Below are positions 1,404 through 18,564 of a stretch of 64,000 nt of DNA, piece after piece (position 1 is the first letter of the stretch; every line of letters starts with the position of its first letter). The DNA lies in IMG/VR virus record IMGVR_UViG_3300002030_000028; one strand, written 5' to 3'. Under the pieces are notes generated by a model. It had not been told where the DNA came from. It worked only from the letters and a program-made list of their open reading frames with translations, and did no database searches. The position numbers and the translations under genes were made by a program. The DNA is from a virus.

Positions 1404-1949
1404 ATGCCTAAAAAAGTACAAACACCAAGAGACGTTCTGGACGACCCAAAATATACCGAGGCCGCTCGGAACTTGATGGAAAATTCAGGAAAGCCCGGTC
1501 CAAAAGGCGGCAGGCCAACAGATTATCATCTGGTATTGACGCAAAGTCTTTGGGATCTGAGGGATGAAAATCCCGATAAGGTTTGGACACAAGCGGAGAT
1601 ATGCCGGTTTCTGGATATATCGGAAACCACATGCAGGTCATGGAAAAGAAAATATTCTGAATTTGCTGAAGTGGTCGATTCTCATCGTTTGGGCAATAAG
1701 GTCTTCTATGAAAAGGCGTTACGTCACAGCGCGGCAACCGGAAAAGGTAACAGTAGAAGCATTCAATTTGGTTTGATGAATTCCTACGAAGAGGACTATC
1801 GAAACCGTAATTCAGATGAGTCGATCGTTGATCAGAAGGTAAACACATCTGATGCACCGGATGTTTCTTTCCTGTCTCTCGACAGAAAGCGAAAAATGCT
1901 CGCTTTGATCAACTCCGGAGAGCCGCATGAACCTGCCGACGACGCATGA
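1404..1949 (+). CDS. terS: terminase small subunit (putative)
   Basis: 181 aa, directly upstream of terL and overlapping it by 23 nt. HTH-like segment QAEICRFLDISETTCRSWKRKY. Confidence 0.6.
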   Translation: MPKKVQTPRDVLDDPKYTEAARNLMENSGKPGPKGGRPTDYHLVLTQSLWDLRDENPDKVWTQAEICRFLDISETTCRSWKRKYSEFAEVVDSHRLGNKVFYEKALRHSAATGKGNSRSIQFGLMNSYEEDYRNRNSDESIVDQKVNTSDAPDVSFLSLDRKRKMLALINSGEPHEPADDA

Positions 1950-4431
1950 TGTAATCGAGTACGCGGAAAAGAACCCAGACCGGTTACAGTACATACTCGA
2001 AAAATCTCTGTGTCAGGAAAGCCTGATTGACTTCATACGTGTGTTTTGGAGTGAGGTTGAGCCATCGGTTGACCTCGCAACGAATTGGGCGCTCGAGGCT
2101 ATGGCGGAACATCTCGAGGCCGTTTCAAATGATGAGATAGATAATTTACTCATAAATGTCCCGCCGGGCATGATGAAAGCCGCCCCTTACTACCTCCCTG
2201 TTTTAACAACACACGGATGGAAGCAGCACGGTGATCTTGATGTAGGTGATTTTGTGTATGGGCCTGATGGTCGGCCTAAGTGCGTGCAAGCCAGAACTCC
2301 AGAGGTGATGGAGGCTTGCTATAGGGTCGAATTTAATGATGGTACAAGCGTTGATATTGGATCAGGGCATGAGTGGGTTGTCGAACGCGACATATCGGAC
2401 GCCACGACGAAGCATAAAAGGCGACGGATCTTGAAAACCGTCACAACGCTTGATTTGAAAGCTGGCGAGCGGGGGGACAGGATACCAACCGCTGCGCCAA
2501 TTCATATGCCACCGTCAAAACAATACATAGACCCGTATCTTCTAGGGGCGTGGCTTGGCGATGGCTCAAGTCGTGGCGGGACTATCTTTGCCGCAGAAGA
2601 CGATGCTGAAACAATTTTGCCCTATGGTGAGGTATCTAAGCGACTGCCTGCTGATGGGCTTCGCAGAAAAAAACCATTCTTAAAAATAAAAGTGCTGGGG
2701 CTTGCCAAATCTTTGCGGGTCATGGGGCTTATTGAGAACAAGCACATACCGTATGAATACCTTCATGCATCTATTGATCAGCGGATTGCTCTTTTGCAGG
2801 GGCTTATGGACACGGACGGGCACTGTGACAAAGGTGGGCGATGCACATTTACAAACAAAGAAAAACGCCTCGCTGATGGCGTCAAGTGGATCGCGGAGTC
2901 GCTAGGAATGGTCGCGACCATAAAAAGCCGATTCACTGAATTGAATGGAAAAACATATGGTCCTCATTACAGCGTTGGATTTAGGCCTTGGGATGGACTG
3001 CAAGTCTTTCGGATGAAAAGAAAGCAAGACCGAATTATTCCAGTTAAGCAGTCACGTTATAGATCAAGATATGTTAAATCTGTTTCTCCCATAGGAAAAA
3101 AACGCGTTAGGTGCATTCAGGTCGAAGGCGGTATCTATCTGATTGATCGCCATATGTGCCCTACTCACAACAGTCTTATGTGCGGGACTTTTTGGCAGGC
3201 TTGGGAGTGGGGTCCGAGGGGCAGGCCGGATCTTCAATATATTACGACCTCTTATGCCGCCGATCTCGCTAAACGCAATCACATGAAGACAAGAAGCCTC
3301 ATCGAAACTGATAAGTTTATGGAGTTTTATGGCTATCTTGTAAGTAAAAACCCAAAGAAAAAAGACAATGAAACTGAATACTGGCTGGCTGCTAACGGTA
3401 TGTCGTTCGCCACCGGAACGTTGGGGAAGCTTACGGGGTATCGCGCCGACCGCATCATCGTTGATGACCCTCACTCAGTCGACGGGGCTGAGAGTGAGCT
3501 TGATCGAGAGAGGACCGTTCGGTGGTTTACCGAAACTCTTTCAACGCGCTTCAACAACGCTAAAACGATCAAGCGCTTGGTGATTATGCAGCGTATTCAT
3601 GAGGGTGATGTTAGCGGCCATATTCTTGAAAACATGAAGGGTCGATATGAGCATTTGATGCTTCCGATGCGGTATGAGCCTGATCGTCGCTGCCATACCG
3701 TCATTGGTTTCAAAGACCCTCGTAAGGAAGATGGGGAGCTTTTGTTCCCTGAGCGTTTTCCTGAAAAAGAACAGACGGAAATCGAAGAAGATATGATGTC
3801 TCAGGGCGGTGAGTATTCGGTTGCGGGTCAAATGCAGCAAAGGCCGGCACCTCGCGGTGGTGGAATGTTCAAGGTCGACAAATTGAACTATTGCGAAATG
3901 GCTCCATCAGGGGGGAAGTTCGCAAGAGGCTGGGATTTTGCAGGTTCGGTCAAAAAGAAAAGTCCATACACGGCGGGCGTTAAGGGGAAGCTTGTTAAAG
4001 GCAACCTGTATATAACTGACGTGGTTAGGGTTCGGCAGAAGATTTATGAAGCCGAGGACACGATTGTTACCACATGCAAGGACGACACAAGATCCGTCCG
4101 GCAGTCACTTCCCCAAGACCCCGGACAAGCTGGTTTGTCTCAAGTGAATAATTTGGCGGGCCGATTGATAGGTTTAGATTTTACTTTCTCGCCCGAATCC
4201 GGGGCCAAAGAGGATCGCGCTATTCCGTTTGCCAGCTATGTGAATGCCGGCAAGGTTTACCTCGTTAAGGGCGATTGGAATAAGGCTTTCGTGAGTGAGC
4301 TGAAAACTTTCCCGCGCGGTACTTACAAAGATCAGGTCGACGCTGCGTCTCGTATGTTCACGGAGGTTCAGCGTATGCCGAAGCGGGCATCTTCAGGGGC
4401 TAAAGGTAAGAATTTCCCGGCTGAGGAATAA
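1927..4431 (+). CDS. terL: terminase large subunit, intein-containing precursor (834 aa; 503-aa exteins)
   Basis: Walker A is split: INVPPGMMK | intein | SLMCGTFWQAWEW. Walker B-like RIIVDDPHS, and a C-terminal nuclease-like region (WDFAGS, QDPGQAG). Confidence 0.9.
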   Translation: MNLPTTHDVIEYAEKNPDRLQYILEKSLCQESLIDFIRVFWSEVEPSVDLATNWALEAMAEHLEAVSNDEIDNLLINVPPGMMKAAPYYLPVLTTHGWKQHGDLDVGDFVYGPDGRPKCVQARTPEVMEACYRVEFNDGTSVDIGSGHEWVVERDISDATTKHKRRRILKTVTTLDLKAGERGDRIPTAAPIHMPPSKQYIDPYLLGAWLGDGSSRGGTIFAAEDDAETILPYGEVSKRLPADGLRRKKPFLKIKVLGLAKSLRVMGLIENKHIPYEYLHASIDQRIALLQGLMDTDGHCDKGGRCTFTNKEKRLADGVKWIAESLGMVATIKSRFTELNGKTYGPHYSVGFRPWDGLQVFRMKRKQDRIIPVKQSRYRSRYVKSVSPIGKKRVRCIQVEGGIYLIDRHMCPTHNSLMCGTFWQAWEWGPRGRPDLQYITTSYAADLAKRNHMKTRSLIETDKFMEFYGYLVSKNPKKKDNETEYWLAANGMSFATGTLGKLTGYRADRIIVDDPHSVDGAESELDRERTVRWFTETLSTRFNNAKTIKRLVIMQRIHEGDVSGHILENMKGRYEHLMLPMRYEPDRRCHTVIGFKDPRKEDGELLFPERFPEKEQTEIEEDMMSQGGEYSVAGQMQQRPAPRGGGMFKVDKLNYCEMAPSGGKFARGWDFAGSVKKKSPYTAGVKGKLVKGNLYITDVVRVRQKIYEAEDTIVTTCKDDTRSVRQSLPQDPGQAGLSQVNNLAGRLIGLDFTFSPESGAKEDRAIPFASYVNAGKVYLVKGDWNKAFVSELKTFPRGTYKDQVDAASRMFTEVQRMPKRASSGAKGKNFPAEE
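2179..3171 (+). mobile_element. Intein (331 aa) with LAGLIDADG homing endonuclease, class 3 (WCT) signature
   Basis: Starts at Ala (AAPYYLPVL) and ends THN followed by Ser+1. LAGLIDADG motifs LLGAWLGDGS and LLQGLMDTDGH. Block B GSGHEW (Trp at B12), block F VRCIQVE (Cys where Asp is usual), block G T-H-N. Confidence 0.85.
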
Positions 4432-7573: not shown

Positions 7574-7652
7574 TGCGCGAGAGTTTGAGCGATATTTATC
7601 ACCGATGGGACGAGATTTTGGAATTTCTCCAAGAAGAATGAAAGGAAATATC

Positions 7653-8501
7653 ATGGGATTGACGATAACGAATGAAAACGGGAAACGGGTTAGCTTCAAA
7701 ATGTTCACGTTTCCGGGTGGCGAGCGGCATGTACAGATAAAGAATTTTGAGAAGTCGGATCTGTACAAAGTCCGCGCGGCCCTCAATTCTTCAGATGAGA
7801 TAATGGATCTTCTTCTGGCTTGCGATGCCCTTCAGGAGTTAAGCGGTGGGTGCCGTATAGCGCTCCTGATACCCTATATGCCGTATGCGCGTCAGGATCG
7901 CGTATGTGCGCCCGGTCAGCCTTTCTCCATGAGGGTCATGGCTGATATTCTGCATACAATTCGCAATGTCGTTTCGATCACGACTTACGATATTCATAGT
8001 GATGCGGGATGCGATCTCGTCAATGCCAATAATATTCCGGCCTGCGATTTGATTATGGCCAGTCATGAGATTTCAAGCCTAATCCGTGAGAAAGATACGG
8101 TTATCGTTTGCCCGGATGCTGGCGCCGTTAAGAGGGTTGATGAACTCGCGGACTTATTCGGTAAGGCGCGTGATGTTGTTTACTGCCAAAAGGTCAGAGA
8201 TCCCGAAACTGGATTCATAAGCGAGATCACCGTCGGTGCGGAAACGCTCGAGGGCAAGACGGCTTTCATAGCTGACGATATATGCGACGGCGGCAGAACG
8301 TTCACCATGATCGCGCGCGCGCTCAGGGAGCTATCTGTCGAGCGTGTGGTGCTTTACGTTACGCACGGTATCTTCAGTAAAGGCATTGAGGCCGTCCTGC
8401 GCGACACTGAGACGGACCAACTTCTCATCGACAAGATATTCACCACCGACACGATAACGAACCATGTTCACCCGAACCTTGAAGTAATCAAATTAAAATA
8501 G
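7653..8501 (+). CDS. ribose-phosphate pyrophosphokinase family enzyme (Prs-like; candidate ADPR pyrophosphokinase Adps of NARP1)
   Basis: LLIPYMPYARQDR, TYDIHSD and the PRPP-loop FIADDICDGGRTF. Trimmed to the ATG at 7653, 4 nt after AAAGGAAA. Adjacent to the Nampt-like gene. Confidence 0.85.
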   Translation: MGLTITNENGKRVSFKMFTFPGGERHVQIKNFEKSDLYKVRAALNSSDEIMDLLLACDALQELSGGCRIALLIPYMPYARQDRVCAPGQPFSMRVMADILHTIRNVVSITTYDIHSDAGCDLVNANNIPACDLIMASHEISSLIREKDTVIVCPDAGAVKRVDELADLFGKARDVVYCQKVRDPETGFISEITVGAETLEGKTAFIADDICDGGRTFTMIARALRELSVERVVLYVTHGIFSKGIEAVLRDTETDQLLIDKIFTTDTITNHVHPNLEVIKLK

Positions 8502-8525
8502 CGAAAATTGAAAAGGAAAACAGCT

Positions 8526-10025
8526 ATGCGCTTAAACCCACTGACCGCGATCGACTTCTATAAGGCCGATCACCGCCGACAATACCCTGAAGGGACGGAG
8601 TACGTTTATTCAAATTTCACCCCGCGCTCGTCAAAGCACGCGCCAGTGCTCGATGATTTTGACGACCGCGTGGTTTTCTTTGGCCTTCAGGGTTTCATCA
8701 AAAGCTTTCTGATTGATGCTTGGAATGAAAATTTCTTCAATCGCCCGATAGAGCAGGTTCTGTACGACTATCAGGTCCGGATGGATAAATCGCTTGGCGT
8801 CGGAGTGATATCGGTTGAGCACATCGAGGCGCTCCACCGTCTCGGTGCGCTGCCCATTCACATCAAGGCCCTACCCGAGGGGTCTCGGGTCAATATGCGG
8901 GTTCCGATGTTCACGATCGTAAACACGCTGCCGGAATTCTTCTGGTTGACGAATTATCTCGAGACCTCGATGAGCGCGGGTATTTGGAAATCATGCACCA
9001 CCGCCACGATAGCATTTGAATACCGTCGGCTGCTTACGCATTTCTACAAAGAGACCGGCGCGGATCTTCGCGATATCGCGGTCAACGTCCATGACTTCAG
9101 TTTTCGCGGTATGAGCGGAATACATGACGCTGCTCAATCGGGAGCTGGTCATCTGTTGAGCTTTGTCGGAACCGATACCGTTCAGGCAATTGATTATGTC
9201 GATGAATATTACTTCGGTGCCGAGAGTGGGCCGGCGCCGATCGGCCTGTCTGTGCCCGCGACAGAGCATAGCGTGATGTGCATGGGCACGAAGGGGGATG
9301 AGGTCGGAACGTTTAGGCGCCTAATCACCGAGACCTACCCCACGGGGATTGTCTCGATCGTGTCCGATACATGGGATTTCTGGCAGGTCATCACGGAATA
9401 TTCTGTGTTGCTGAAGGATGAGATATTAGCCAGAGAACCCAATAACCTCGGACTGGCCAAGGTGGTATTCAGACCAGACAGCGGTGATCCGGTCAAAATA
9501 CTATGCGGTGACCCCGCAGCGCCTCTGGGTTCTCCGGCCCGTAAAGGGGCTGTGGAATGTCTCTGGGACATTTTCGGCGGCACTCACACGCCTGCTGGCT
9601 ATATGCAGCTACATGAGCGCGTGGGCCTCATCTATGGGGATTCTATAACGCTTCAACGCGCGAAGGACATTATGGAACGATTGAAGCTGAAGGGCTTCGC
9701 GGCAAATAACGTGGTGTTCGGGGTCGGGAGTTACACGTACCAATACGTGACCCGCGATAGCTTTGGGTTCGCGATGAAAGCCACTTGGGGTCAGGTCGAC
9801 GGTGAAGGCCGGGATATATTCAAAGACCCGATTACGGATGATGGATTGAAGAAATCCGCCAAAGGTCTGTTGAGGGTTGAGGAGACAGATCAGGGCTTTG
9901 TGCTTCATGATCAACAAACCGCCGATCAGGAACGCGAAGGCGCCATGAGGTCGGTGTTCCATGAGGGACGGTTGATTGTTGAGGATACGTTTCAGCAAAT
10001 CCGTCACCGCCTTATGGGCTTTTAG
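8526..10025 (+). CDS. nicotinamide phosphoribosyltransferase family enzyme (NadV/Nampt-like; candidate Namat of NARP1)
   Basis: N-terminus NPLTAIDFYKADHRRQYPEGTEYVYSNFTPRS plus FRGMSG, PATEHSVM, RPDSGDP and IYGDSIT, all typical of the Nampt family. ATG at 8526 follows AAAAGGAAAA. Confidence 0.9.
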   Translation: MRLNPLTAIDFYKADHRRQYPEGTEYVYSNFTPRSSKHAPVLDDFDDRVVFFGLQGFIKSFLIDAWNENFFNRPIEQVLYDYQVRMDKSLGVGVISVEHIEALHRLGALPIHIKALPEGSRVNMRVPMFTIVNTLPEFFWLTNYLETSMSAGIWKSCTTATIAFEYRRLLTHFYKETGADLRDIAVNVHDFSFRGMSGIHDAAQSGAGHLLSFVGTDTVQAIDYVDEYYFGAESGPAPIGLSVPATEHSVMCMGTKGDEVGTFRRLITETYPTGIVSIVSDTWDFWQVITEYSVLLKDEILAREPNNLGLAKVVFRPDSGDPVKILCGDPAAPLGSPARKGAVECLWDIFGGTHTPAGYMQLHERVGLIYGDSITLQRAKDIMERLKLKGFAANNVVFGVGSYTYQYVTRDSFGFAMKATWGQVDGEGRDIFKDPITDDGLKKSAKGLLRVEETDQGFVLHDQQTADQEREGAMRSVFHEGRLIVEDTFQQIRHRLMGF

Positions 10026-10149: not shown

Positions 10150-10347
10150 ATGAATATTAGCGATATGATAGTGGTGGTGAAGACGTTCGACGATGAGAAC
10201 CAAATCAAAAACGTAACGTTTGAAGGCACGAACGGCTATACCATCGATGGTGGGGTTTTGCAGATAGTCTATGCCGATCATTGCGCCCACGTTTATGCGC
10301 CAGATCAATGGCTCGAGATATCCTGTACACCTAAAAAGGATTCGTGA
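10150..10347 (+). CDS. hypothetical protein (65 aa)
   Basis: ORF track entry. Confidence 0.45.
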   Translation: MNISDMIVVVKTFDDENQIKNVTFEGTNGYTIDGGVLQIVYADHCAHVYAPDQWLEISCTPKKDS

Positions 10348-10383
10348 TGTTCATTTTTGCTGCCTCATTTGTGGTCGAAAAAA

Positions 10384-10575
10384 TTAACATGGTGGTTCTT
10401 TTTTAAGAAAGCGATCGACCATAACCTCTGGGCTAGGCATCTCTAATCCTAATTCTTCAAGTTCATTTTTCGTATATTGAGCAGTCTCAATTAGCTTGCA
10501 CCTTTCCCTACATACGCGATACGCCACAGCAAGCCTCAAGGTAACGAAATCACTAGGGGGCATATGCATCATCAT
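10384..10575 (-). CDS. hypothetical protein (63 aa), co-transcribed with the XRE regulator
   Basis: ORF track entry. 4-nt overlap with the upstream minus-strand gene. Confidence 0.45.
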   Translation of the reverse strand: MMMHMPPSDFVTLRLAVAYRVCRERCKLIETAQYTKNELEELGLEMPSPEVMVDRFLKKEPPC

Positions 10576-10784
10576 TTTTGCTCAAGCTCCCTATCAAGCA
10601 GGAACTTGTATATAGCGGCCTGCGCTATACCGGGGACGTTCTTACGCCCGCTCTCAAATGCACTTATTTCGGGCGCGCTATAGGGTTTATTTTTCCCCGT
10701 TCTGTCCGATAGCCATTGACCAAATTCAATTTGCTTCATCTCCATGTGGGATCGGAAGTCCTTAAAGTCTTTTGCTGTCATCAT
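10572..10784 (-). CDS. XRE/Cro-type helix-turn-helix regulator (70 aa)
   Basis: MKQIEFGQWLSDRTGKNKPYSAPEISAFESGRKNVP is a typical HTH_XRE layout. GAGGAG SD. Divergent from the ribozyme operon. Confidence 0.7.
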   Translation of the reverse strand: MMTAKDFKDFRSHMEMKQIEFGQWLSDRTGKNKPYSAPEISAFESGRKNVPGIAQAAIYKFLLDRELEQK

Positions 10785-10833
10785 GTGATCAGTCTCCTCT
10801 GTATTTTCCCGAGATAATCATGTTATGTAAAAA

Positions 10834-10886
10834 AATCAAGTTTTTTAATTTTAGGACTTGATTAAAAAGCATAAGTTATCTATATA
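10834..10886. promoter_or_regulatory. Divergent promoter/operator: inverted repeat AATCAAGT(10834-10841)/ACTTGATT(10856-10863) plus a plus-strand promoter
   Basis: Plus strand: TTGATT (10858-10863), 17-nt spacer, TATATA (10881-10886). The left arm read on the minus strand is also TTGATT, so both -35 boxes lie inside the palindrome. Confidence 0.5.
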
Positions 10887-11023
10887 GGTTGTATCAGAGA
10901 TGATCACGGCGGACGCGAAACCGCCACGGCATAAACCAAAACTCGACGCCACTACGCGGGAAACAACGACCCGCGCGAACGTGGGAATCGCGACGATGAA
11001 ACGAGACGCGGTGAGGGAGACAG

Positions 11024-11074
11024 GTCAACGGCAGATAAGCGAGCCGTTCTGATGAGATAGCTTAATTCGAAACC
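11024..11074 (+). ncRNA. Hammerhead-like element HHR-0, permuted (type III-like) variant, activity doubtful
   Basis: GUC 11024-11026. Stem I 11027-11032/11043-11048. CUGAUGA 11049-11055. 5-bp pseudoknot 11036-11040 with 11060-11064. UUCGAAAC (11066-11073) lies 3' of the core. Stems II and III are only 2-3 bp. Confidence 0.3.
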
Positions 11075-11085
11075 GAGGAAATATT

Positions 11086-11298
11086 ATGAAACTTACATAT
11101 TGGATTGCGAAGCAAGAAAATGACCATACTTGCTATGATGTGCGAGCCAAAACGCGCAAAGAATGTTCACGTCTAGTGTCTGAACTACATAACGCGAAAT
11201 ATTATGGCAAGCCTGAAAAGGTAACTGTCGAATATGAAGATGCTTTTGATCTTATGATTGAGTGTCGCGGGCATGAGGATTCAGGATATTGGGAATAG
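11086..11298 (+). CDS. hypothetical protein (70 aa), cistron 1 of the ribozyme operon
   Basis: ORF track entry. GAGGAAA SD. The TAG stop overlaps HHR-A stem II. Confidence 0.6.
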   Translation: MKLTYWIAKQENDHTCYDVRAKTRKECSRLVSELHNAKYYGKPEKVTVEYEDAFDLMIECRGHEDSGYWE

Positions 11299-11360
11299 TC
11301 GAAACCGGGTTTTACCCGGTCAGCCGAGGACCAGCCACCCGGCTCTGATGAGACAGGCTG
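11296..11360 (+). ncRNA. Type II hammerhead ribozyme HHR-A
   Basis: UAGUC-GAAAC (11301-11305). Stem III 11305-11309/11315-11319. Cleavage after C11321. Stem I 11322-11326/11340-11344. CUGAUGA 11345-11351. GAC pairs GUC. Pseudoknot CAGCC 11332-11336 with GGCUG 11356-11360. Confidence 0.85.
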
Positions 11361-11376
11361 CAATAAGGAATTTATC

Positions 11377-11609
11377 ATGAATATCGACGCAATTTTTACC
11401 GGCCTATATGCTTCAATCATGGTTCGTGACGGCAATGTCACCCATGTCGTTCAATACACGAAAGAAGAGGTTCGGGAGCTTTAACCGATGAGCAGCTTAC
11501 CTTTCTGATTAACGGTGAGATGCCAATCATCACGGACCCCGTCACGAGAGCTCAGACGGTTCATATCAGTATGGACATTCAGGCTCGCAGGGTTCTGTGT
11601 CCGAAATAA
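11377..11609 (+). pseudogene. Cistron 2: two short ORFs (11377-11484, 35 aa; 11520-11609, 29 aa) or one frameshifted gene of about 77 aa
   Basis: The span is 233 nt (3n+2). ...KEEVREL stop in one frame reads on in the -1 frame as ...LTDEQLTFLINGEMPIITDPVTRAQ... The TAA at 11607 is embedded in HHR-B. Confidence 0.35.
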
Positions 11610-11669
11610 TCGAAACCGCCCCTTGGCGGTCTGTCGGGAATGATCCCCCGGCACTGATGAGATAGATTG
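11607..11669 (+). ncRNA. Type II hammerhead ribozyme HHR-B
   Basis: UAAUC-GAAAC (11612-11616). Stem III 11616-11620/11625-11629. Cleavage after C11631. Stem I 11632-11638/11647-11653. CUGAUGA 11654-11660. GAU pairs AUC. Pseudoknot UGAUC 11641-11645 with GAUUG 11665-11669 (two wobbles). Confidence 0.8.
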
Positions 11670-11681
11670 AAAGGAAAAATT

Positions 11682-11909
11682 ATGCCTCACGTATCAACAT
11701 ACGATAGCGCGCCGTTTGCAAAAGCTTATAAAGCTACAGATAGACTAGAAACTTCTGATAGACGCGCTATGGCGAAGGTCGGGGTTGAGTATGCATATTA
11801 TTCATACTTGCTGTTTTTAGGCGTAAGTTATGAGACTGCAATTCAGGCATTTGAAGGAATAGGATCTAACGCTCATAATTTAAATGAGGTTGCTCGTAAA
11901 TTTCCATAA
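11682..11909 (+). CDS. hypothetical protein (75 aa), cistron 3
   Basis: Track ORF trimmed to the ATG at 11682, after GAAAGGAAAAA. Tandem TAA TAA stops. Confidence 0.55.
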   Translation: MPHVSTYDSAPFAKAYKATDRLETSDRRAMAKVGVEYAYYSYLLFLGVSYETAIQAFEGIGSNAHNLNEVARKFP

Positions 11910-11913
11910 TAAA

Positions 11914-11979
11914 TAATCGAAACCGGCGCGCACCGCCGGTCTGGCAAGGGTTAGCCGCCTGCCACTGATGAGATAGGCT
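11914..11979 (+). ncRNA. Type II hammerhead ribozyme HHR-C
   Basis: UAAUC-GAAAC (11919-11923). Stem III 11923-11928/11934-11939. Cleavage after C11941. Stem I 11942-11946/11960-11964. CUGAUGA 11965-11971. Pseudoknot AGCC 11953-11956 with GGCU 11976-11979. Confidence 0.85.
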
Positions 11980-11995
11980 TTTAAAGGATGAACAC

Positions 11996-12145
11996 ATGAC
12001 AAGATCAGAACGTTTCGCGAAAGGCTTTGTTGGCTTGCTTCTGGGTGGTTTCGCCATCTGGTGTTGGCTCAAGGCCGTACCCGCGTACCCGATGATTTTC
12101 GGAATGGGAGCGATGTATTTTTTCTATCGCGCCGCTGAAACCTAG
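11996..12145 (+). CDS. small membrane protein (49 aa), cistron 4
   Basis: Hand-translated MTRSERFAKGFVGLLLGGFAIWCWLKAVPAYPMIFGMGAMYFFYRAAET. AAAGGA SD. The TAG stop is embedded in HHR-D. Confidence 0.5.
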   Translation: MTRSERFAKGFVGLLLGGFAIWCWLKAVPAYPMIFGMGAMYFFYRAAET

Positions 12146-12205
12146 TCGAAACGCGCTCCGGCGCGTCAGCTTGGATTTATCACCATGCTCTGATGAGACA
12201 GATTG
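12143..12205 (+). ncRNA. Type II hammerhead ribozyme HHR-D
   Basis: UAGUC-GAAAC (12148-12152). Stem III 12152-12156/12161-12165 with a UCCG loop. Cleavage after C12167. Stem I 12168-12174/12183-12189 (one U-U mismatch). CUGAUGA 12190-12196. Pseudoknot is only weak (AUC/GAU). Confidence 0.8.
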
Positions 12206-12218
12206 AAAGGAAAACGGC

Positions 12219-12389
12219 ATGGGACCGACAAAGGTAGATATAGAGCCAGTGACTGATCAGGTCTTCTGGGTCACGGTAGACGGAAAGCGGTTTAAGAAAT
12301 TCACAAACATGGGATTAGCATGGGCGCACGCGAAAACGATAGTCGATTTCTATGAGTTTGAAGGCCGGACTGCTGAGTTAGTTCAATAA
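12219..12389 (+). CDS. hypothetical protein (56 aa), cistron 5
   Basis: Hand-translated MGPTKVDIEPVTDQVFWVTVDGKRFKKFTNMGLAWAHAKTIVDFYEFEGRTAELVQ. GAAAGGAAAA SD. The TAA stop is embedded in HHR-E. Confidence 0.5.
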   Translation: MGPTKVDIEPVTDQVFWVTVDGKRFKKFTNMGLAWAHAKTIVDFYEFEGRTAELVQ

Positions 12390-12447
12390 TCGAAACGCCT
12401 TCGGGCGTCTGTCGCATATGGGCAAGCGGCACTGATGAGATAGCCCA
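12387..12447 (+). ncRNA. Type II hammerhead ribozyme HHR-E
   Basis: UAAUC-GAAAC (12392-12396). Stem III 12396-12399/12404-12407 with a UUCG loop. Cleavage after C12409. Stem I 12410-12415/12426-12431. CUGAUGA 12432-12438. Pseudoknot UGGGC 12419-12423 with GCCCA 12443-12447. Confidence 0.85.
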
Positions 12448-12462
12448 CAGTGGAGAATGTAT

Positions 12463-12702
12463 ATGTCGAAAACATCCAAAACCATTAAGCGTGCTCGCCG
12501 GATCAACCTCCGGATGGAGCGCATAAAGAAAGCCGTACAGGCGACCGACGTGTTGCTTGATACCTATTTCGATATGCGGGCCTCGGAAATCGAGGACTTC
12601 AATGCTGATCTGGAGAAGATGACCACTACGGTTGACGCCGATAAAATGGCTGACACCGAGCCGCCTAAGAAGAAGGCAGGCAATTCCGGAAAAACCGGAT
12701 AG
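12463..12702 (+). CDS. hypothetical protein (79 aa), cistron 6
   Basis: Track ORF 12457-12702. The ATG at 12463 has better spacing from GGAG (12452-12455). The TAG stop is embedded in HHR-F. Confidence 0.55.
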   Translation: MSKTSKTIKRARRINLRMERIKKAVQATDVLLDTYFDMRASEIEDFNADLEKMTTTVDADKMADTEPPKKKAGNSGKTG

Positions 12703-12836
12703 TCGAAACCCAAAGATTCCCCACAGCTAAAGGCTTTAAGGGAATGGGGTACTGCTGAAATTCATCATTACCGAAAATCAGGAATACCCCTTGGGTCCGC
12801 GTAGACTTATCCCTGCGCGCTGATGAGACAGATAAG
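12700..12836 (+). ncRNA. Type II hammerhead ribozyme HHR-F with an 86-nt branched insertion in stem III
   Basis: UAGUC-GAAAC (12705-12709). Stem III base 12709-12713/12791-12795, with hairpins 12716-12745 and 12746-12790. Cleavage after C12797. Stem I 12798-12804/12813-12819. CUGAUGA 12820-12826. Pseudoknot CUUAUC 12806-12811 with GAUAAG 12831-12836. Confidence 0.85.
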
Positions 12837-12847
12837 GGAGATTGATA

Positions 12848-13051
12848 ATGAAAAAAGTGCCAAGTGTAATAATGCACCATACCTTCAGTAACGGTAGTGA
12901 ATTGGGCACCTCTGTTCATGCAGATGGGTTCAGAGTCGAGTATTATAACGCTAAGAACGGGCAATTTAGGACTTTGAGTAGCGGCCATAAAACACAGCAG
13001 TTATGCCGTCAATCATTCTGGGACATACGCGACCACATCTGGAGCAATTGA
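12848..13051 (+). CDS. hypothetical protein (67 aa), cistron 7
   Basis: Track ORF trimmed to the ATG at 12848, 7 nt after AAGGGAG. Confidence 0.55.
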   Translation: MKKVPSVIMHHTFSNGSELGTSVHADGFRVEYYNAKNGQFRTLSSGHKTQQLCRQSFWDIRDHIWSN

Positions 13052-13111
13052 ATTCGAAACGCCGCGAGGCGTCATGCCGAGATGACCACCGGCATCTGAT
13101 GAGATAGGTCA
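13051..13111 (+). ncRNA. Type II hammerhead ribozyme HHR-G (stem II weakened)
   Basis: AAUUC-GAAAC (13056-13060). Stem III 13060-13063/13068-13071 with a GCGA loop. Cleavage after C13073. Stem I 13074-13079/13090-13095. CUGAUGA 13096-13102. Pseudoknot UGACC 13083-13087 with GGUCA 13107-13111. The third stem II pair is U-U. Confidence 0.65.
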
Positions 13112-13124
13112 AGGAGAACATTCA

Positions 13125-13955
13125 ATGAAAAATGTAACCCATATCATTACCGGAGCTGCGATAGCGGCTTGCGGTTTGCTCATTCTCGCCGTTTCAGCAT
13201 CCATGAGCTTTCAGGGATATGAGCGGGAATTCGAAAGCCTGTCGGGTGCGGGCCTCATAGGGGTCGGTATCGCGGGTCTGGCTTTCCTCTGCGCTGGCGC
13301 GGTCAGGATATCCCTTAAACAGGATATGCGGGACGTCGCCATCATCGCGGCCATCATGGCTGCGGTGTGCTTTGCCGGAGACGTATACGGTAACAACCTC
13401 GCCACCGGCGGGGACGTGGAACAAGAGATACAGCAGGCCCTCGCGGGTCAAGCGGCTTATGATACCGCCGAGACAGCGCTTCCACTGGTGAGGCAACGCT
13501 TGAAAACATCTCAGTCAAAGCTCGATACCGTATCGGGTGATGACATTTGCGCCGCGCAGCGCCTTCTTAAAGCTGAAGGTTTGTACGGCGGCGCTATCGA
13601 TTGTCGCAACGGACCAGTGACCGAAGCGGCCATGCTGTCCTTTGGCAGTGATCTGCGGGTAAAAATAGCCACTCTCGAGGCATCAGAAATGAAGCATCAA
13701 GGGGTAGTTTCTGTGGGTCGGCCTACAGCACCCCATGATTTATCTAAATTGTGGGCCAGCATAATCGCTTTTTTACTGACCTCGCTCTCTATGGCGTCGT
13801 CAGCGATCGGCCTACCTCTCATGGTGGGTCAGAAGCGTGAGCCGAGCGTCGATGAGGCGTTCAGCGAGATTGAGGATAGCCTTGATGACATGGAGGACGG
13901 CCTTGGTGAGTTGTTTGACTTCGTTAAGGAGGTGAGCGAGCGCCGGGCCGCATAG
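13125..13955 (+). CDS. membrane protein with peptidoglycan-binding-like repeat (276 aa), cistron 8
   Basis: Several hydrophobic segments. CAAQRLLKAEGLYGGAIDCRNGPVTEAAMLSFG resembles the PG_binding_1 motif. AAGGAG SD. The TAG stop is embedded in HHR-H. Confidence 0.6.
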   Translation: MKNVTHIITGAAIAACGLLILAVSASMSFQGYEREFESLSGAGLIGVGIAGLAFLCAGAVRISLKQDMRDVAIIAAIMAAVCFAGDVYGNNLATGGDVEQEIQQALAGQAAYDTAETALPLVRQRLKTSQSKLDTVSGDDICAAQRLLKAEGLYGGAIDCRNGPVTEAAMLSFGSDLRVKIATLEASEMKHQGVVSVGRPTAPHDLSKLWASIIAFLLTSLSMASSAIGLPLMVGQKREPSVDEAFSEIEDSLDDMEDGLGELFDFVKEVSERRAA

Positions 13956-14013
13956 TCGAAACCCGCTTCGGCGGGTCCATCGGGGATAATCTTCCGATGC
14001 TGATGAGACAGAT
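13953..14013 (+). ncRNA. Type II hammerhead ribozyme HHR-H
   Basis: UAGUC-GAAAC (13958-13962). Stem III 13962-13966/13971-13975 with a UUCG loop. Cleavage after C13977. Stem I 13978-13983/13994-13999. CUGAUGA 14000-14006. 4-bp pseudoknot AUCU 13989-13992 with AGAU 14010-14013. Confidence 0.8.
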
Positions 14014-14027
14014 AAAGGAGAATATTT

Positions 14028-14309
14028 ATGGGAAAATTCATTTATCATCACCCAAGCCGAAGAGTTGATGACTATCGTTTCTTGTCTTTGAGCAAATATA
14101 AAGCTGGACATACGCCGTTAAGTTACGAGGTCGCTATGCGAGGACTAGAAAATCTGGGTCTTTATTGTGATCCTTATTTTTCTGATTTGACGCATCATAG
14201 GCGAAACGAACGCCCAGATTTAAATGACCTGTCTGTGATCTCTTATTGCAAGATACGCGATGAAAGCTCTGGCATGGTTTGCGATGAATTATTACAAATA
14301 AAAACTTAG
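14028..14309 (+). CDS. hypothetical protein (93 aa), cistron 9
   Basis: ORF track entry. AAAGGAG SD. The TAG stop is embedded in HHR-I. Confidence 0.6.
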   Translation: MGKFIYHHPSRRVDDYRFLSLSKYKAGHTPLSYEVAMRGLENLGLYCDPYFSDLTHHRRNERPDLNDLSVISYCKIRDESSGMVCDELLQIKT

Positions 14310-14386
14310 TCGAAACGCTGTTTTGCGAAATTTCGTAATTCGGCGTCTGCCGGAGATTGGTTCCCCGGTACTGATGAGACAGACCA
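14307..14386 (+). ncRNA. Type II hammerhead ribozyme HHR-I (extended stem III)
   Basis: UAGUC-GAAAC (14312-14316). Stem III 14316-14320/14341-14345 plus inner helix 14325-14328/14333-14336. Cleavage after C14347. Stem I 14348-14353/14365-14370. CUGAUGA 14371-14377. Pseudoknot UGGUU 14358-14362 with GACCA 14382-14386. Confidence 0.85.
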
Positions 14387-14400
14387 GAAAGGTAATATCA

Positions 14401-15027
14401 ATGTTCAATAAGGAAGAAATTAAGAGCCAACTCGAGGCGTTTATCACGGCAGCGGGTATCGTTGATTTTAAGGTGAGCGCGACCCAAACGGGCACATTTG
14501 CATGCCTGTTTCAGGAGCAAGAGGATGCCGAAACAGTTAAGGGGCTTATGCCTCCAAGGTTTTCGAACAAAAGAGTCCTTTATGATCGTACAGAAAACGC
14601 ATACGTCGTGACGGGTTCATATTCTCCGCCTGTTATGAAAGAAGAAACCGTCCTTCATATAACGAACAAGACCATCACGACGGCCAAAACGGCTGACGGC
14701 GCCGAGGCGTCTGTGACGAGCATCACGGAGCATGAAGCACCGCGCACCGATCGCCTGCCCGATACGACGATTGAACAGGTCAATAAAGCTATCGTGATGG
14801 GCAATTTTCACGATATGACGGCAACGGAATTCATCATGTTGTCATCAGGCTTCAGCATCTATCCCGGCACAAAGTACCGGATACACAAGCCGCCACAGAA
14901 CTCTGAAGCCGTCATCATGTGCATGAGGCATGACATTCCCAGAATATCGCTAACGATTATTGACCTCCGCGACCCTGATATGATCTGGGGCGTGGATATG
15001 GAGAAAAATGAGATTTACCAGACATAA
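14401..15027 (+). CDS. hypothetical protein (208 aa), cistron 10
   Basis: Track ORF 14323-15027 trimmed to the ATG at 14401 (MFNKEEIKSQ) after GAAAGG. The longer version would read through HHR-I. Confidence 0.6.
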   Translation: MFNKEEIKSQLEAFITAAGIVDFKVSATQTGTFACLFQEQEDAETVKGLMPPRFSNKRVLYDRTENAYVVTGSYSPPVMKEETVLHITNKTITTAKTADGAEASVTSITEHEAPRTDRLPDTTIEQVNKAIVMGNFHDMTATEFIMLSSGFSIYPGTKYRIHKPPQNSEAVIMCMRHDIPRISLTIIDLRDPDMIWGVDMEKNEIYQT

Positions 15028-15113: not shown

Positions 15114-15140
15114 AGCCCGCCACGTGCGGGCTTTTTTTTT
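15114..15140 (+). terminator. Rho-independent terminator closing the ribozyme operon
   Basis: GCCCGC (15115-15120) pairs with GCGGGC (15126-15131), followed by nine T residues (15132-15140). Confidence 0.8.
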
Positions 15141-15148
15141 GCCGCGTT

Positions 15149-16666
15149 ATGACCCATAAGGGTGAAAACGAGGAGTTGATGTTTATGGCCAAGGGTAGCG
15201 CAAAAAGCTCAAGTACAATTCAGAAGGCTATTCTGAGCAGCCGGGGCTCATCGGGCTCTTCAAATCTTGGCGGCATTAAGAGCCGCTCGACCAGTATCAC
15301 CAAGCCCGGCGGTACGTCGGCGGTACGGCATTACGCTGGTTTCATCGCCACGCGTGAGCGAAACCCCAAGCTTCAACGCCACAAACGCTATGAAGAGTTT
15401 GGCGAGATGCTTCTCAATCAGCCCGTGGTGGCAGCGAGCGTTCGGTTATTTCTTCAAATCGTTAAAGGCATCGAGTGGAACGTTGTGCCGATCGAGGGTG
15501 ATGCGGACTCGAAACGATACGCTGAAGATCTTGAGGAGGTGATTGATAATCTCGAGAGCGGCTGGCCTCAAATTGTTCAACGTTTGTCAGCTTTCGTATA
15601 TTGGGGTTTTAGCATAAGCGAGTGGACAGCGAAGCAGCTCGAGAGCGGGATTGTGGGCTTCAGCGATATCGAGCCCCGTTCTCAACATACCATTCACCGT
15701 TGGGAAATTCAGGATACGGGGAAGATTACCGCCGTTACGCAGCTAAATCCCAACACCGGGGAAGAGCTATTGCTTGAGCGCCGGCGTCTCATATACGCGG
15801 TCGACAACAGCCTGAATGATGACCCGGAGGGGCTTGGCCTGTTTAGGCAGCTGTATTCGGCATACCGGCGTATTGAGAATTACAAGGTCATCGAGGAGAT
15901 TGGTTTTGATACCGACCTGCGCGGGGTGCCGATCGTCAAAGCGCCCCTCGAGGAGCTCAATCAAATGGTTGAGGAGGAAATCATAACGCCTGAGCGCCGT
16001 GAGGAAATCCTATCCGTGTATGAGAACTTCCTGAAAAACCATCAGCGCAAGAAGTCTCAAGGCATGATGATCGATAGTGAGACCTATCTTGATAACGATC
16101 GTAATCCTAGCAACATTCAGAAGTTTGAGATTGAGCTTCTGCGCGGCGATAGCTCAGGCATCATGACGGATTTGCAGAACGCCATTAACCGCGAGCGCAA
16201 CAACATAGCGATGATTGCGAACACGGGATTTCTGCTTCTGGGTGAAGACGGCGCGGGCTCTCTGGCCCTAAGTGAAACGAAGATGGAAACGATATTCATG
16301 TTCGTGAGCTCAACGCTTCAGGATCTGGCGTTCATTCTGAAGCGCGATATGTTCAGATCAGTGGCAAAGCTGAACGGCTGGAATGAGGCTTCGCTGCCGG
16401 ATCTCGATTACGAAAAACCGACAGTTCAGGATATCATCAAAATCACGGAGGCGCTGCGTAACACCTCGACGGCCTTTGGTCCGCTGCCCTCAACGTCTCA
16501 AACCATCAACGAAATCTTCTCAATCATGGGTCTTGAGCCTATACCGGAAGAGGAGTTTGATGCTCAGGACGACGCCCTATTGCCGGGCTTTGATGCTGGC
16601 GGCACTGGGGATCAGCTCGATATGTTCAACGAACCAAAGGAGGAGCCTGAAGATGGCGACGATTGA
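15149..16666 (+). CDS. portal protein (putative)
   Basis: 505 aa, first large gene of the morphogenesis block, acidic C-terminus. Start is uncertain (15149, 15179 or 15185). Assigned by size and position plus general resemblance, no diagnostic motif. Confidence 0.6.
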   Translation: MTHKGENEELMFMAKGSAKSSSTIQKAILSSRGSSGSSNLGGIKSRSTSITKPGGTSAVRHYAGFIATRERNPKLQRHKRYEEFGEMLLNQPVVAASVRLFLQIVKGIEWNVVPIEGDADSKRYAEDLEEVIDNLESGWPQIVQRLSAFVYWGFSISEWTAKQLESGIVGFSDIEPRSQHTIHRWEIQDTGKITAVTQLNPNTGEELLLERRRLIYAVDNSLNDDPEGLGLFRQLYSAYRRIENYKVIEEIGFDTDLRGVPIVKAPLEELNQMVEEEIITPERREEILSVYENFLKNHQRKKSQGMMIDSETYLDNDRNPSNIQKFEIELLRGDSSGIMTDLQNAINRERNNIAMIANTGFLLLGEDGAGSLALSETKMETIFMFVSSTLQDLAFILKRDMFRSVAKLNGWNEASLPDLDYEKPTVQDIIKITEALRNTSTAFGPLPSTSQTINEIFSIMGLEPIPEEEFDAQDDALLPGFDAGGTGDQLDMFNEPKEEPEDGDD

Positions 16667-17583: not shown

Positions 17584-18564
17584 ATGCTTGAAGAGAAGCA
17601 ATTCAGAAGAATACTCAATCGTCAAGAAAGACGAATTAGACGTGTATTCACATTGGCTCTTGAGGAGTACAAAGATAATCTTAATCTATCTCAAATAATA
17701 CGCTCTCTTGAGGCTGGTAATATACCACAAGCTTTAGTTGAGGTTGAAACTGTAGCCCGAACAGTGACCTCAGCATCGCAGCAAGCTTTTATCTCAACCG
17801 CACAGGCAATAACAGCTTCTATTCCCACCACTCAAATTGCATTTAATGTTGTTAACGATCAGGCCGTATCTGTTCTTAGAACAAATGATCTTCGCTTCGT
17901 TCGTAACTTCACCGAGCAGCAAATAGCCGCCACGAGATTGGCCTTAACTGAGGGCGTAAGGGAGGGCCTCGGGCCGCGCGCGCTTGCGCGATCGTTTCGG
18001 GATAGCATTGGTTTGACAGAAAAGGGGGAGGCATCAGTTCGTAATTATCGAAGACTTCTTCAGCGCATAGGACAAGATGATATTCCAAAAAAGATCCAGC
18101 GTGAATCTTTATCTAGAGCCCTGCGTGACCGAAGAAGTGATAGCCTATTGAGGAGGCTTGTAAGAGAAGAAAAGAGCCTTACAGCAGCTGAGATTGATCG
18201 TATGGTTGGGCTCTATCGTGACCGGGCGATTAAGCATAGAGCCTTAACAATCGCTCGAACTGAAGCGCTATCAAGCGTTCATCAAGGCCAAGAAAACGCA
18301 ATTCGGGAGGCTATCCAAAATGGAAAACTCAATCATGAAACCCTTGTATCCGAGTGGCTAACCCGTGTTGATGGTCGTGAACGTGAGTGGCATGAGGCCC
18401 TGAATGGCGTGATGGTTCCTTACGGCACAGCCTTTGAAAACGAAAAGGGCCTCATCATGCACCCCGGTGATAGATCAGCCTCGGCGGAGAATATCATAAA
18501 TTGCAGATGTGTTCGCACAATACGGATACGCAGTCAGGCTTTTGTCGAGCGTCTCGCGGCATAG
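17584..18564 (+). CDS. head morphogenesis protein, SPP1 gp7 / Mu F family
   Basis: 326 aa. C-terminal ...SAENIINCRCV... matches the conserved NCRC signature of this family. Lies downstream of the portal gene. Confidence 0.7.
   Translation: MLEEKQFRRILNRQERRIRRVFTLALEEYKDNLNLSQIIRSLEAGNIPQALVEVETVARTVTSASQQAFISTAQAITASIPTTQIAFNVVNDQAVSVLRTNDLRFVRNFTEQQIAATRLALTEGVREGLGPRALARSFRDSIGLTEKGEASVRNYRRLLQRIGQDDIPKKIQRESLSRALRDRRSDSLLRRLVREEKSLTAAEIDRMVGLYRDRAIKHRALTIARTEALSSVHQGQENAIREAIQNGKLNHETLVSEWLTRVDGREREWHEALNGVMVPYGTAFENEKGLIMHPGDRSASAENIINCRCVRTIRIRSQAFVERLAA

Follow-up and report, generated by a model that had tools for sequence, protein, structure and literature searches.

Upstream stop codons in stem II of an array of type II hammerhead ribozymes in a phage: a probable by-product of ribozyme constraints and compaction

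The virus record IMGVR_UViG_3300002030_000028 of IMG/VR comprises a stretch of 64,000 nucleotides (nt), which as a whole is called the window in the following. Between genes of nicotinamide adenine dinucleotide (NAD) metabolism and the portal gene, small open reading frames (ORFs) alternate with type II hammerhead ribozymes, and the stop codon of the upstream ORF frequently coincides with one strand of the ribozyme's stem II. The question raised by this locus is why coding sequences end exactly there. A sequence-only reading of the DNA had proposed that translation could gate folding of the ribozyme, or the reverse. Six out of nine ORFs end at the same ribozyme position, which is far beyond chance. 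The comparison with related ribozymes makes it probable that the array serves to process a polycistronic RNA and that the overlap is a by-product of a positional wall, a ratchet and compaction, and not a dedicated switch.

The repeated unit occurs nine times on the plus strand and consists, in this order, of UCGAAAC, a hairpin, GUC, a second hairpin, and CUGAUGAGAYAG. The 5' elements (TCGAAAC) are located at 11299, 11610, 11917, 12146, 12390, 12703, 13054, 13956 and 14310, and the 3' elements (CTGATGAGAYAG) at 11345, 11654, 11965, 12190, 12432, 12820, 13096, 14000 and 14371. Together, the nine copies A to I span positions 11296-14386; a tenth, permuted copy (copy 0) is found at 11023-11074. 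For their detection, the Rfam model RF02276 (Hammerhead_II), which has a gathering score of 37 bits, was used together with a structure-based finder. The latter yielded at least 319 type II hammerheads in 2.3 Mb, compared to 3 matches for two decoy cores. The nine copies are listed below; lengths of helices are given in base pairs (bp), and MFE denotes minimum free energy.

11296-11360, plus strand: hammerhead A; stem II GUC/GAC; predicted cleavage after C 11321; pseudoknot CAGCC/GGCUG; RF02276 and structural finder.
11607-11669, plus strand: hammerhead B; stem II AUC/GAU; predicted cleavage after 11631; RF02276.
11914-11979, plus strand: hammerhead C; stem II AUC/GAU; UAA 11914-11916 out of frame with ORF3; predicted cleavage after 11941.
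12143-12205, plus strand: hammerhead D; stem II GUC/GAC; predicted cleavage after 12167; U·U mismatch in stem I; MFE fold.
12387-12447, plus strand: hammerhead E; stem II AUC/GAU; predicted cleavage after 12409; pseudoknot UGGGC/GCCCA.
12700-12836, plus strand: hammerhead F; stem II GUC/GAC; branched stem III insert of about 84 nt; predicted cleavage after 12797; 6-bp pseudoknot.
13049-13111, plus strand: hammerhead G; stem II UUC/GAU (2 bp plus U·U); predicted cleavage after 13073; pseudoknot UGACC/GGUCA.
13953-14015, plus strand: hammerhead H; stem II GUC/GAC; predicted cleavage after 13977; RF02276.
14307-14386, plus strand: hammerhead I; stem II GUC/GAC; extended stem III; predicted cleavage after 14347; pseudoknot UGGUU/GACCA.

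In all nine copies, CUGAUGA, GAAA and GUC stand in the correct core order. Scores above the gathering score of RF02276 were obtained for B (54.7 bits), H (51.8), I (44.5), D (40.9), C (40.6) and E (39.0). Copies A (35.2) and G (32.5) fall just below it, and F reaches 21.5 bits. These low values are attributed to a weak pseudoknot or stem in A, to the U·U in G, and to the large stem III insert in F. The structural finder recovers eight of the nine copies and misses D solely because of the U·U mismatch in stem I. The MFE folds contain both hairpins; stem II is open, with pairs at alignment columns 5-63, 6-62 and 7-61. In an alignment of seven window copies, 94% of the cells are paired and 12 of 18 pairs vary on both sides, a value that was reached by none of 500 shuffles. 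The pseudoknot formed by loop I and the 3' tail (helix 4) comprises five pairs that are in register in the seven copies; 91% of them are paired and four vary on both sides, for which A, E and G in the list serve as examples. For F (CUUAUC/GAUAAG) and I (UGGUU/GACCA), the pseudoknot was assessed by visual inspection.

Judged by motif, fold and covariation, the nine repeats are real type II hammerheads with an open 3-bp stem II, of the kind described previously (PMC3088659). One could object that the motifs only resemble hammerheads and that the overlap with stop codons is coincidental, and the sub-gathering scores of A, G and F would fit this objection. The 3' motif, however, has 11 matches in the window at no more than one mismatch, compared to 0.5 expected. 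Both-sided changes occur in all four helices and were equalled in 0/500 shuffles, the decoy cores gave 3 matches compared to at least 319 for the real one, and a single ribozyme position ends six ORFs. Mere look-alike repeats are ruled out by the core-motif excess, the covariation and the decoy counts, and the probability of a chance finding is negligible.

Two copies carry insertions in stem III, namely F at 12703-12800 (branched, about 84 nt) and I at 14310-14350 (an extra hairpin). At the 3' edge of copy F (12831-12842, plus strand), the pseudoknot strand GAUAAG overlaps the Shine-Dalgarno (SD) sequence AAGGGAG of the next ORF. To judge from this overlap, folding of the ribozyme and initiation of translation may compete at the 3' edge of this copy too.

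The ORFs and their stop codons are arranged relative to the ribozymes as follows; lengths are given in amino acids (aa).

11086-11298, plus strand: ORF1, 70 aa; stop UAG 11296-11298 corresponds to positions 11.5-11.3 of copy A; SD GAGGA before the ATG.
11377-11609, plus strand: ORF2 region; SD-led ORF 11377-11484 (35 aa), then a second frame to UAA 11607-11609 in stem II of B.
11682-11912, plus strand: ORF3, 75 aa; tandem stops UAA UAA 11907-11912 directly before copy C.
11996-12145, plus strand: ORF4, 49 aa; stop UAG 12143-12145 in stem II of D.
12219-12389, plus strand: ORF5, 56 aa; stop UAA 12387-12389 in stem II of E.
12457-12702, plus strand: ORF6, 81 aa; stop UAG 12700-12702 in stem II of F.
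12848-13051, plus strand: ORF7, 67 aa; stop UGA 13049-13051, adjoining copy G, with position 11.5 as its A.
13125-13955, plus strand: ORF8, 276 aa; stop UAG 13953-13955 in stem II of H.
14028-14309, plus strand: ORF9, 93 aa; stop UAG 14307-14309 in stem II of I.
14401-15027, plus strand: ORF10, 208 aa; last cistron, with no ribozyme after it.

The stem II triplets are those that the sequence-only reading had given, that is GUC/GAC in A, D, F, H and I, AUC/GAU in B, C and E, and UUC/GAU in G. It had counted seven in-frame stops in stem II. Six of them are clear (A, D, E, F, H and I), each terminating an SD-led ORF whose ATG lies shortly behind the previous ribozyme; the seventh, in B, is ambiguous because the frame changes within the ORF2 region. 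According to a three-frame translation, the -1 frame is open from 11430 to the stem II UAA of B (59 codons). ORF2 could be a frameshifted gene, the result of an indel, a pseudogene, or two mini-ORFs. The overlap of the two frames contains no X XXY YYZ slippery site. A programmed frameshift was also considered and rejected, because a prfB-like +1 shift at CUU UAA C meets UGA at once. For copy C, a stop 5 nt earlier had been reported; the tandem UAA UAA in fact start 7 and 4 nt before the stem II UAA. The UGA upstream of copy G was correctly placed at 13049-13051. That G is slower or inactive, as had been suspected from its mismatch, is not implied: a 2-bp stem II is the norm in one entire class of these ribozymes (PMC3088659), the core of G is intact, and its pseudoknot comprises 5 bp.

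The last base of the stop codons located in stem II belongs to the third pair of this helix, 11.3-10.3. The triplets of the eight copies other than G had been interpreted as perfect compensatory covariation. Within the window, the support for this interpretation is weak. Among the seven aligned copies, the third pair is A-U in three cases, G-C in three cases and different in one, and the table of G/A versus C/U (5:0:0:3) gives an exact p of 1/56. Moreover, B, C and E share the flanks AAUAAUCGAAAC and GUCUG...CACUGAUGAGAUAG. The window covariation may therefore represent only one or two events in one lineage.

A sample of the ribozyme family was compiled by two pattern scans of viral contigs in which the positions of interest were left free. 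The resulting set contains at least 300 non-identical type II hammerheads outside the window, which originate from 239 viral contigs; all family counts given here and below are those among the matches listed. Members are often related and form 76 clusters at 80% identity. In the UC class, whose second stem II pair is U-A, the third pair is G-C in 107 cases, A-U in 15, G·U in 3, C-G in 1, and unpaired in 11. The corresponding table of G/A by C/U has a Fisher p of 7e-13. An independent alignment of 142 distinct viral sequences, based on a covariance model, contains 120 G-C, 14 A-U and 4 G·U combinations and 4 unpaired cases. In this alignment, 98.1% of the cells are paired and 12 of 13 pairs vary on both sides. 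The pair A15.1-U16.1 is invariant, both in these sequences (142/142) and in the aligned window copies (7/7). The third stem II pair is thus real by the measure of this family-wide covariation and has been compensated repeatedly. A fourth stem II pair, U11.5-G10.5, was considered as well and rejected, because this G forms the first pseudoknot pair with an invariant C of loop I.

The flanks common to B, C and E also suggest a different history, in which the ribozyme spreads within and between phages as a module that is already bordered by a UAR (5') and an SD (3'), and ORFs newly bounded by it inherit the stop. The covariation would then reflect a few duplicated lineages instead of repeated compensation. 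Arrays are indeed common, with up to 11 ribozymes in the viral contig L156 and 8 in L024, and the flanked genes have been described as non-conserved cassettes (PMC6155905). The pair variants are nevertheless distributed over many 80%-identity clusters (24 for G-C, 8 for A-U, 3 for G·U and 1 for C-G), which argues for repeated compensation. In addition, stems I and III and the pseudoknot differ among the window copies, so that any duplication must be old.

For each ribozyme of the family, the longest open frame of at least 66 codons running toward the ribozyme was determined and the position of its stop was recorded. In the UC class, the stop is exactly a UAR at 11.5-11.3 in 46/122 cases. In a further 24/122 it lies 1 nt upstream, as a URA that shares the conserved A11.4, and in 32/122 it lies 2-7 nt further upstream. 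In the GC class, which has a 2-bp stem II (GC/GC), URA-GC was found in 38/132 cases, UAG-C in 12/132, and a stop one nt further upstream in 20/132. The stop starts at most 12 nt from G12 in most cases, namely in 84% (UC class) and 77% (GC class). ORFs that stop inside or beyond the ribozyme are rare (6/122 in the UC class, 8/132 in the GC class). Ribozymes that were found by the covariance model outside the search pattern have a stop at the same position in 17/30 cases, including the UAGCC/GGC class. As far as these ORF assignments allow a judgement, the stop overlap is the modal arrangement of phage type II hammerheads and not peculiar to this array.

Downstream of the ribozyme, the start of the next ORF follows at a median distance of 24 nt past G10.1 in the family (interquartile range 19-29). 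In the window, an SD and an ATG are found 15-24 nt past G10.1 in every scorable type II copy; for copy 0, the distance is 30 nt. Because the spacing is short on both sides, the ribozyme and the SD fill the whole intergenic gap, both in this phage and across the family.

Several minor observations concern the same positions. A third class of stem II, UAGCC/GGC, whose second pair is C-G, occurs in the contigs L006, L019, L028, L039, L060, L077 and others; its 5' strand is the UAG of the upstream ORF. Copies of this class are often found in the same arrays as UAGUC/GAC copies. Dense arrays exist elsewhere, for example in L156 (about 2.8-5.9 kb, 11 copies), L024 (8.1-11.3 kb, 8-10 copies) and L001 (6.2-9.6 kb, about 8 copies); arrays of about ten ribozymes are thus not unique to this phage. 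In the related contigs L052, L060, L100 and L105, the ORF ends at a UAA 10 nt upstream while an out-of-frame UAG is kept at 11.5-11.3. This UAG could be a relic of an earlier stop position or could be due to chance.

Retention of an out-of-frame UAG by these four members is also what would be expected if the ribozyme had spread together with its stop. Such hitch-hiking accounts for descent; it does not account for the absence of stops inside the ribozyme. In combination with the cluster distribution and the divergence of the window copies, this makes the module a rather improbable source of the overlap.

Two observations indicate how the overlap can arise from the ribozyme itself. Firstly, A11.4 is conserved in 119/137 sequences of the UC class and corresponds to position 1 of the Rfam consensus, which is written there as an upper-case A. 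Together with the purine at 11.3, two of the three stop bases are therefore supplied by the ribozyme, and the overlap can be explained without gating. In contrast, U11.5 is found in only 23/88 cases (26%) where it is not part of the ORF's stop. This value equals the background, which means that U11.5 is not a requirement of the ribozyme. Secondly, the codons AGU, GUC, UCG, CGA, GAA and AAA/AAC are never stops, which makes 11.5-11.3 the deepest possible stop site in the UC class. Because it is the last permitted site, ORF ends pile up there as at a wall. The type of stop follows from the same geometry. Among the 46 exact overlaps, UAG is combined with C10.3 in 36 cases and UAA with U10.3 in 8, with 2 exceptions; stop type tracks the base at 10.3 because the last base of the stop pairs with it.

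The processing that is regarded as probable would proceed as follows. Each ribozyme would cleave itself after GUC, as expected from the published behaviour of the family. The upstream cistron would keep its stop codon and a 3' stem III hairpin that ends in a 2',3'-cyclic phosphate. Its stop codon would lie about 25-30 nt from the new 3' end, a distance at which normal termination is possible. The downstream cistron would be headed by a 5'-OH, the stem I hairpin and the pseudoknot, followed by the SD. Since the open stem II of 2-3 bp would be the sole join between the two products, they would separate. The type II topology is functionally sensible for mRNA processing. If copy 0 is active, each of the ten cistrons would have its 5' end produced by a ribozyme and its 3' end formed by a hairpin. 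As to the stop codons, the ribozyme fixes an unpaired A11.4 and a paired purine 11.3 just 5' of UC-GAAA, and a single U in front of them creates UAG or UAA. A stop made of constrained bases would be hard to lose, while the loss of upstream stops would extend an ORF as far as the wall. This ratchet would be complemented by compaction through the short intergenic spacers that are usual in phages.

The overlap might instead have been selected because it couples the two processes. According to this explanation, selection places the stop in stem II, and terminating or queued ribosomes hold the ribozyme unfolded. The junction would then be cut after translation of the upstream ORF, or inversely to it; conversely, a ribozyme that has folded might influence termination or recycling. 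Physically, the premise is sound. From footprint and helicase studies of the ribosome it is known that, with a stop codon in the A site, the mRNA channel covers about the next 10 nt. It thus follows from the known footprint that a ribosome terminating at such a stop covers the GAAA core as well as the 5' strand of stem II. The stretch enclosed by the channel would be UC and GAAA plus the initial pairs of stem III, and a terminating ribosome would unavoidably keep the ribozyme unfolded for a brief period. Given the fraction of stops close to G12, occlusion at termination is normal in both classes and evidently not selected against. Consistent with coupling, ORFs almost never enter the ribozyme, the pseudoknot on the 3' side abuts or overlaps the SD (e.g. 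in copy F), and a possible regulation of phage hammerheads was put forward as a speculation by Perreault et al. (PMC3088659).

An exact overlap is, however, unnecessary for such a mechanism, since occlusion would be just as effective with stops at -6, -8 and so on. It is missing in C, in G and in about half of the family, and U11.5 is not conserved where it is unused. Furthermore, arrays of A. tumefaciens cleave efficiently in plain in vitro transcription (PMC3088659), so that activity does not require a ribosome. Given the ribosome footprint, gating of the ribozyme by terminating ribosomes is physically plausible as a tentative proposal; that selection placed the stop for this purpose appears unlikely. 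It is likewise doubtful that phage type II hammerheads in general use the overlap, together with the SD behind the pseudoknot, as a device selected for coupling, in which translation of the upstream cistron would set the time or rate at which each junction is cut.

The preference for processing with a by-product overlap has to be weighed against several points. The overlap saves only a few nt per junction, yet about 650 nt of apparently non-coding DNA are tolerated upstream of the array (10.23-10.89 kb). Compactness alone therefore does little to explain such a sharp accumulation of stops. The ratchet has been argued, not measured. What the accumulation does show is that occlusion by ribosomes is at any rate tolerated at stem II, as would equally be expected of a selected coupling. 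The family ORFs are mechanical assignments of the longest open frame. The family sample is defined by a pattern and its members are related; the cases of exact overlap belong to 10 clusters at 80% identity. Finally, no relative of the phage was found that would provide orthologous junctions for comparison.

Much of the arrangement is known from other phages. Type II hammerheads, their pseudoknot, their clustering around single prophage genes and the hypothesis of mRNA processing have been published, and hammerhead clusters flanking single prophage genes cleave in vitro and in E. coli (PMC3088659). Hammerhead arrays have also been found to flank small non-conserved ORFs (PMC6155905). As in the gene-flanking arrangement of Perreault 2011, nine or ten same-strand ribozymes alternate with ten ORFs in phage DNA here. 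The array shares with the published prophage and phage type II clusters (RF02276, PMC3088659) the core CUGAUGA ... GAAA, the GUC site and the pseudoknot between loop I and the 3' tail. It also shares the presence of several copies around single small genes, for which cutting into single-gene mRNAs was proposed (PMC3088659). It differs from them in the number of copies, nine and possibly ten, compared to two or three in the tandems tested for cleavage (PMC3088659), and in being bracketed by a permuted leader copy and a terminator. The type II hammerheads of D. vulgaris are active in cells according to cyPhyRNA-seq (PMC8782182). They likewise lie beside hypothetical and phage-like genes and cleave in their native context, but as single or paired copies in a bacterial chromosome (PMC8782182). 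The array is thus a new, large and tidy example of a published arrangement.

The biological role of bacterial and phage hammerheads is called an open question in reviews (PMC6765202, PMC6155905). In the text of PMC3088659, the term "stop codon" has 0 occurrences. Neither the rule that the upstream stop lies in or next to the 5' strand of stem II, nor the link of stop type to the partner base, nor the resulting competition of ribosome and ribozyme was found in the searchable literature; most subscription journals lie outside it, so that this is no proof of novelty.

Two further comparisons are instructive. In synthetic ribozyme insulators such as RiboJ, which are inserted behind a promoter or an upstream gene, self-cleavage leaves a defined 5'-OH and a hairpin before the ribosome binding site, which uncouples a cistron from its upstream context. 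These are engineered single units derived from type III hammerheads, whereas the units described here are natural, arrayed, of type II, and overlap the upstream stop. At abutting or overlapping gene boundaries of phages and bacteria (ATGA, TAATG), a stop is shared with a neighbouring functional element. In both situations ORF ends reach as far as a constrained sequence, which is a catalytic RNA helix here and the start codon of the next gene there. Because the next start lies about 75-90 nt away, no coupling of termination and reinitiation is implied by the stop overlap.

The operon is an unusually complete example in that every cistron apparently has a 5' end generated by a ribozyme and a 3' end with a hairpin. 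For the family, a rule can be formulated: the 5' strand of stem II normally contains or abuts the end of the upstream ORF, the SD of the next ORF comes after the pseudoknot, and whether UAG or UAA is used is linked to the partner base. This rule pins down the nucleotides that are contested by ribosome and ribozyme and turns a vague idea of regulation into a testable one. It is of use for annotation, since gene ends become predictable from ribozyme positions, at which UAG is over-used for a structural reason. It may also guide the design of compact natural-style ribozyme insulators. If the overlap is a by-product, it would be a tidy case of a coding signal that has been shaped by RNA structure. 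If gating were true, hammerhead arrays would be translation-sensing RNA processing switches, and bacterial and phage hammerheads would have a concrete regulatory role.

The array begins with the permuted copy:

11023-11074, plus strand: copy 0, type III-like; GGUC, predicted cleavage after 11026; assigned by core order and pairings.

Its parts are stem I (11027-11048), CUGAUGA (11049-11055), stem II (11056-11068), GAA (11069-11071), and ACC as the 3' strand of stem III (11072-11074). Stem I comprises 6 bp (AACGGC-loop-GCCGUU), and stem II is closed by a loop (GAU-A-GCUUA-A-UUC). Loop I UAAGC and GCUUA form a 5-bp pseudoknot that matches the pattern of the other copies. Only 3 bp make up stem III, the 3' side of which continues into the SD of ORF1. 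A descriptor search detects copy 0 and, in addition, similar permuted copies before genes in the viral contigs L128 and L140. No Rfam type III match was obtained at E <= 10. An assignment as an ordinary type II hammerhead was rejected because RF02276 gives only 15.7 bits and the GAAA is broken. Copy 0 is therefore a candidate that is better described, from its order and pairings, as a permuted type III hammerhead. This assignment explains two otherwise isolated elements, CUGAUGAGAUAG at 11049 and UCGAAAC at 11067. Like type III hammerheads (PMC3088659), copy 0 has the order cleavage site, stem I hairpin, CUGAUGA, closed stem II, GAA and open stem III, and a pseudoknot that joins loop I and loop II (UAAGC/GCUUA). 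It differs in its 3-bp stem III, the 3' side of which enters the SD. Copy 0 has no upstream ORF, and the equivalent positions read AAUUC and not UAR, which fits the stop being a feature of the ORF.

Two further elements delimit the array:

10858-10886, plus strand: candidate promoter, TTGATT, 17 nt, TATATA; tentative, identified by eye in an AT-rich stretch upstream of the leader.
15114-15140, plus strand: strong intrinsic terminator, AGCCCGC-loop-GCGGGCT, with a GC-rich stem of 7 bp and then T8; upstream of the portal gene, which starts at 15149.

The terminator marks the array as a transcription unit of its own. By its layout, the region of about 10.89-15.14 kb (plus strand) is one phage transcription unit, with ten small orphan ORFs and nine type II hammerheads between them. 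A promoter consensus scan gave no excess and did not list the candidate at 10858-10886. The stretch 10230-10890, about 650 nt between the NAD genes and the leader of the array, is AT-rich and contains only short ORFs on both strands; it may hold a promoter and regulatory region. Weak matches to Trp_leader and small RNAs at 15114-15140 correspond to the terminator hairpin itself.

None of the ten ORFs of the array matches a significant family in Pfam or PHROGs; for ORF8, only a sub-threshold match to PG_binding_1 was found. This agrees with the small non-conserved proteins reported for such arrays (PMC6155905). A blastn search of the array against phage records and an exact-protein look-up gave no relatives of the phage. 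The same holds for scans of viral, metagenome and genome contigs for related loci with the 276-aa array protein and the portal.

The window contains typical genes of tailed phages, namely those for the large terminase (1927-4431), the portal (15149-16666) and a head morphogenesis protein (17584-18564). The portal is only about 35% identical to those of deposited phages; RDJL-type Roseobacter phages and others are the best matches. Stop usage in the rest of the window, which is based on crude and noisy assignments and serves as context only, amounts to TAA 28, TGA 24 and TAG 18. An NAD-salvage pair at 7605-10025 (plus strand) codes for a ribose-phosphate pyrophosphokinase-like protein and a nicotinamide phosphoribosyltransferase (PHROG E-values of 4e-74 and 8e-192). 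The large terminase (1927-4431, plus strand) comprises 834 aa, and its N-terminal stretch of about 320 residues also matches primase and DnaC-like P-loop families of PHROG; it may be an unusual fusion, or these may merely be cross-matches between ATPases.

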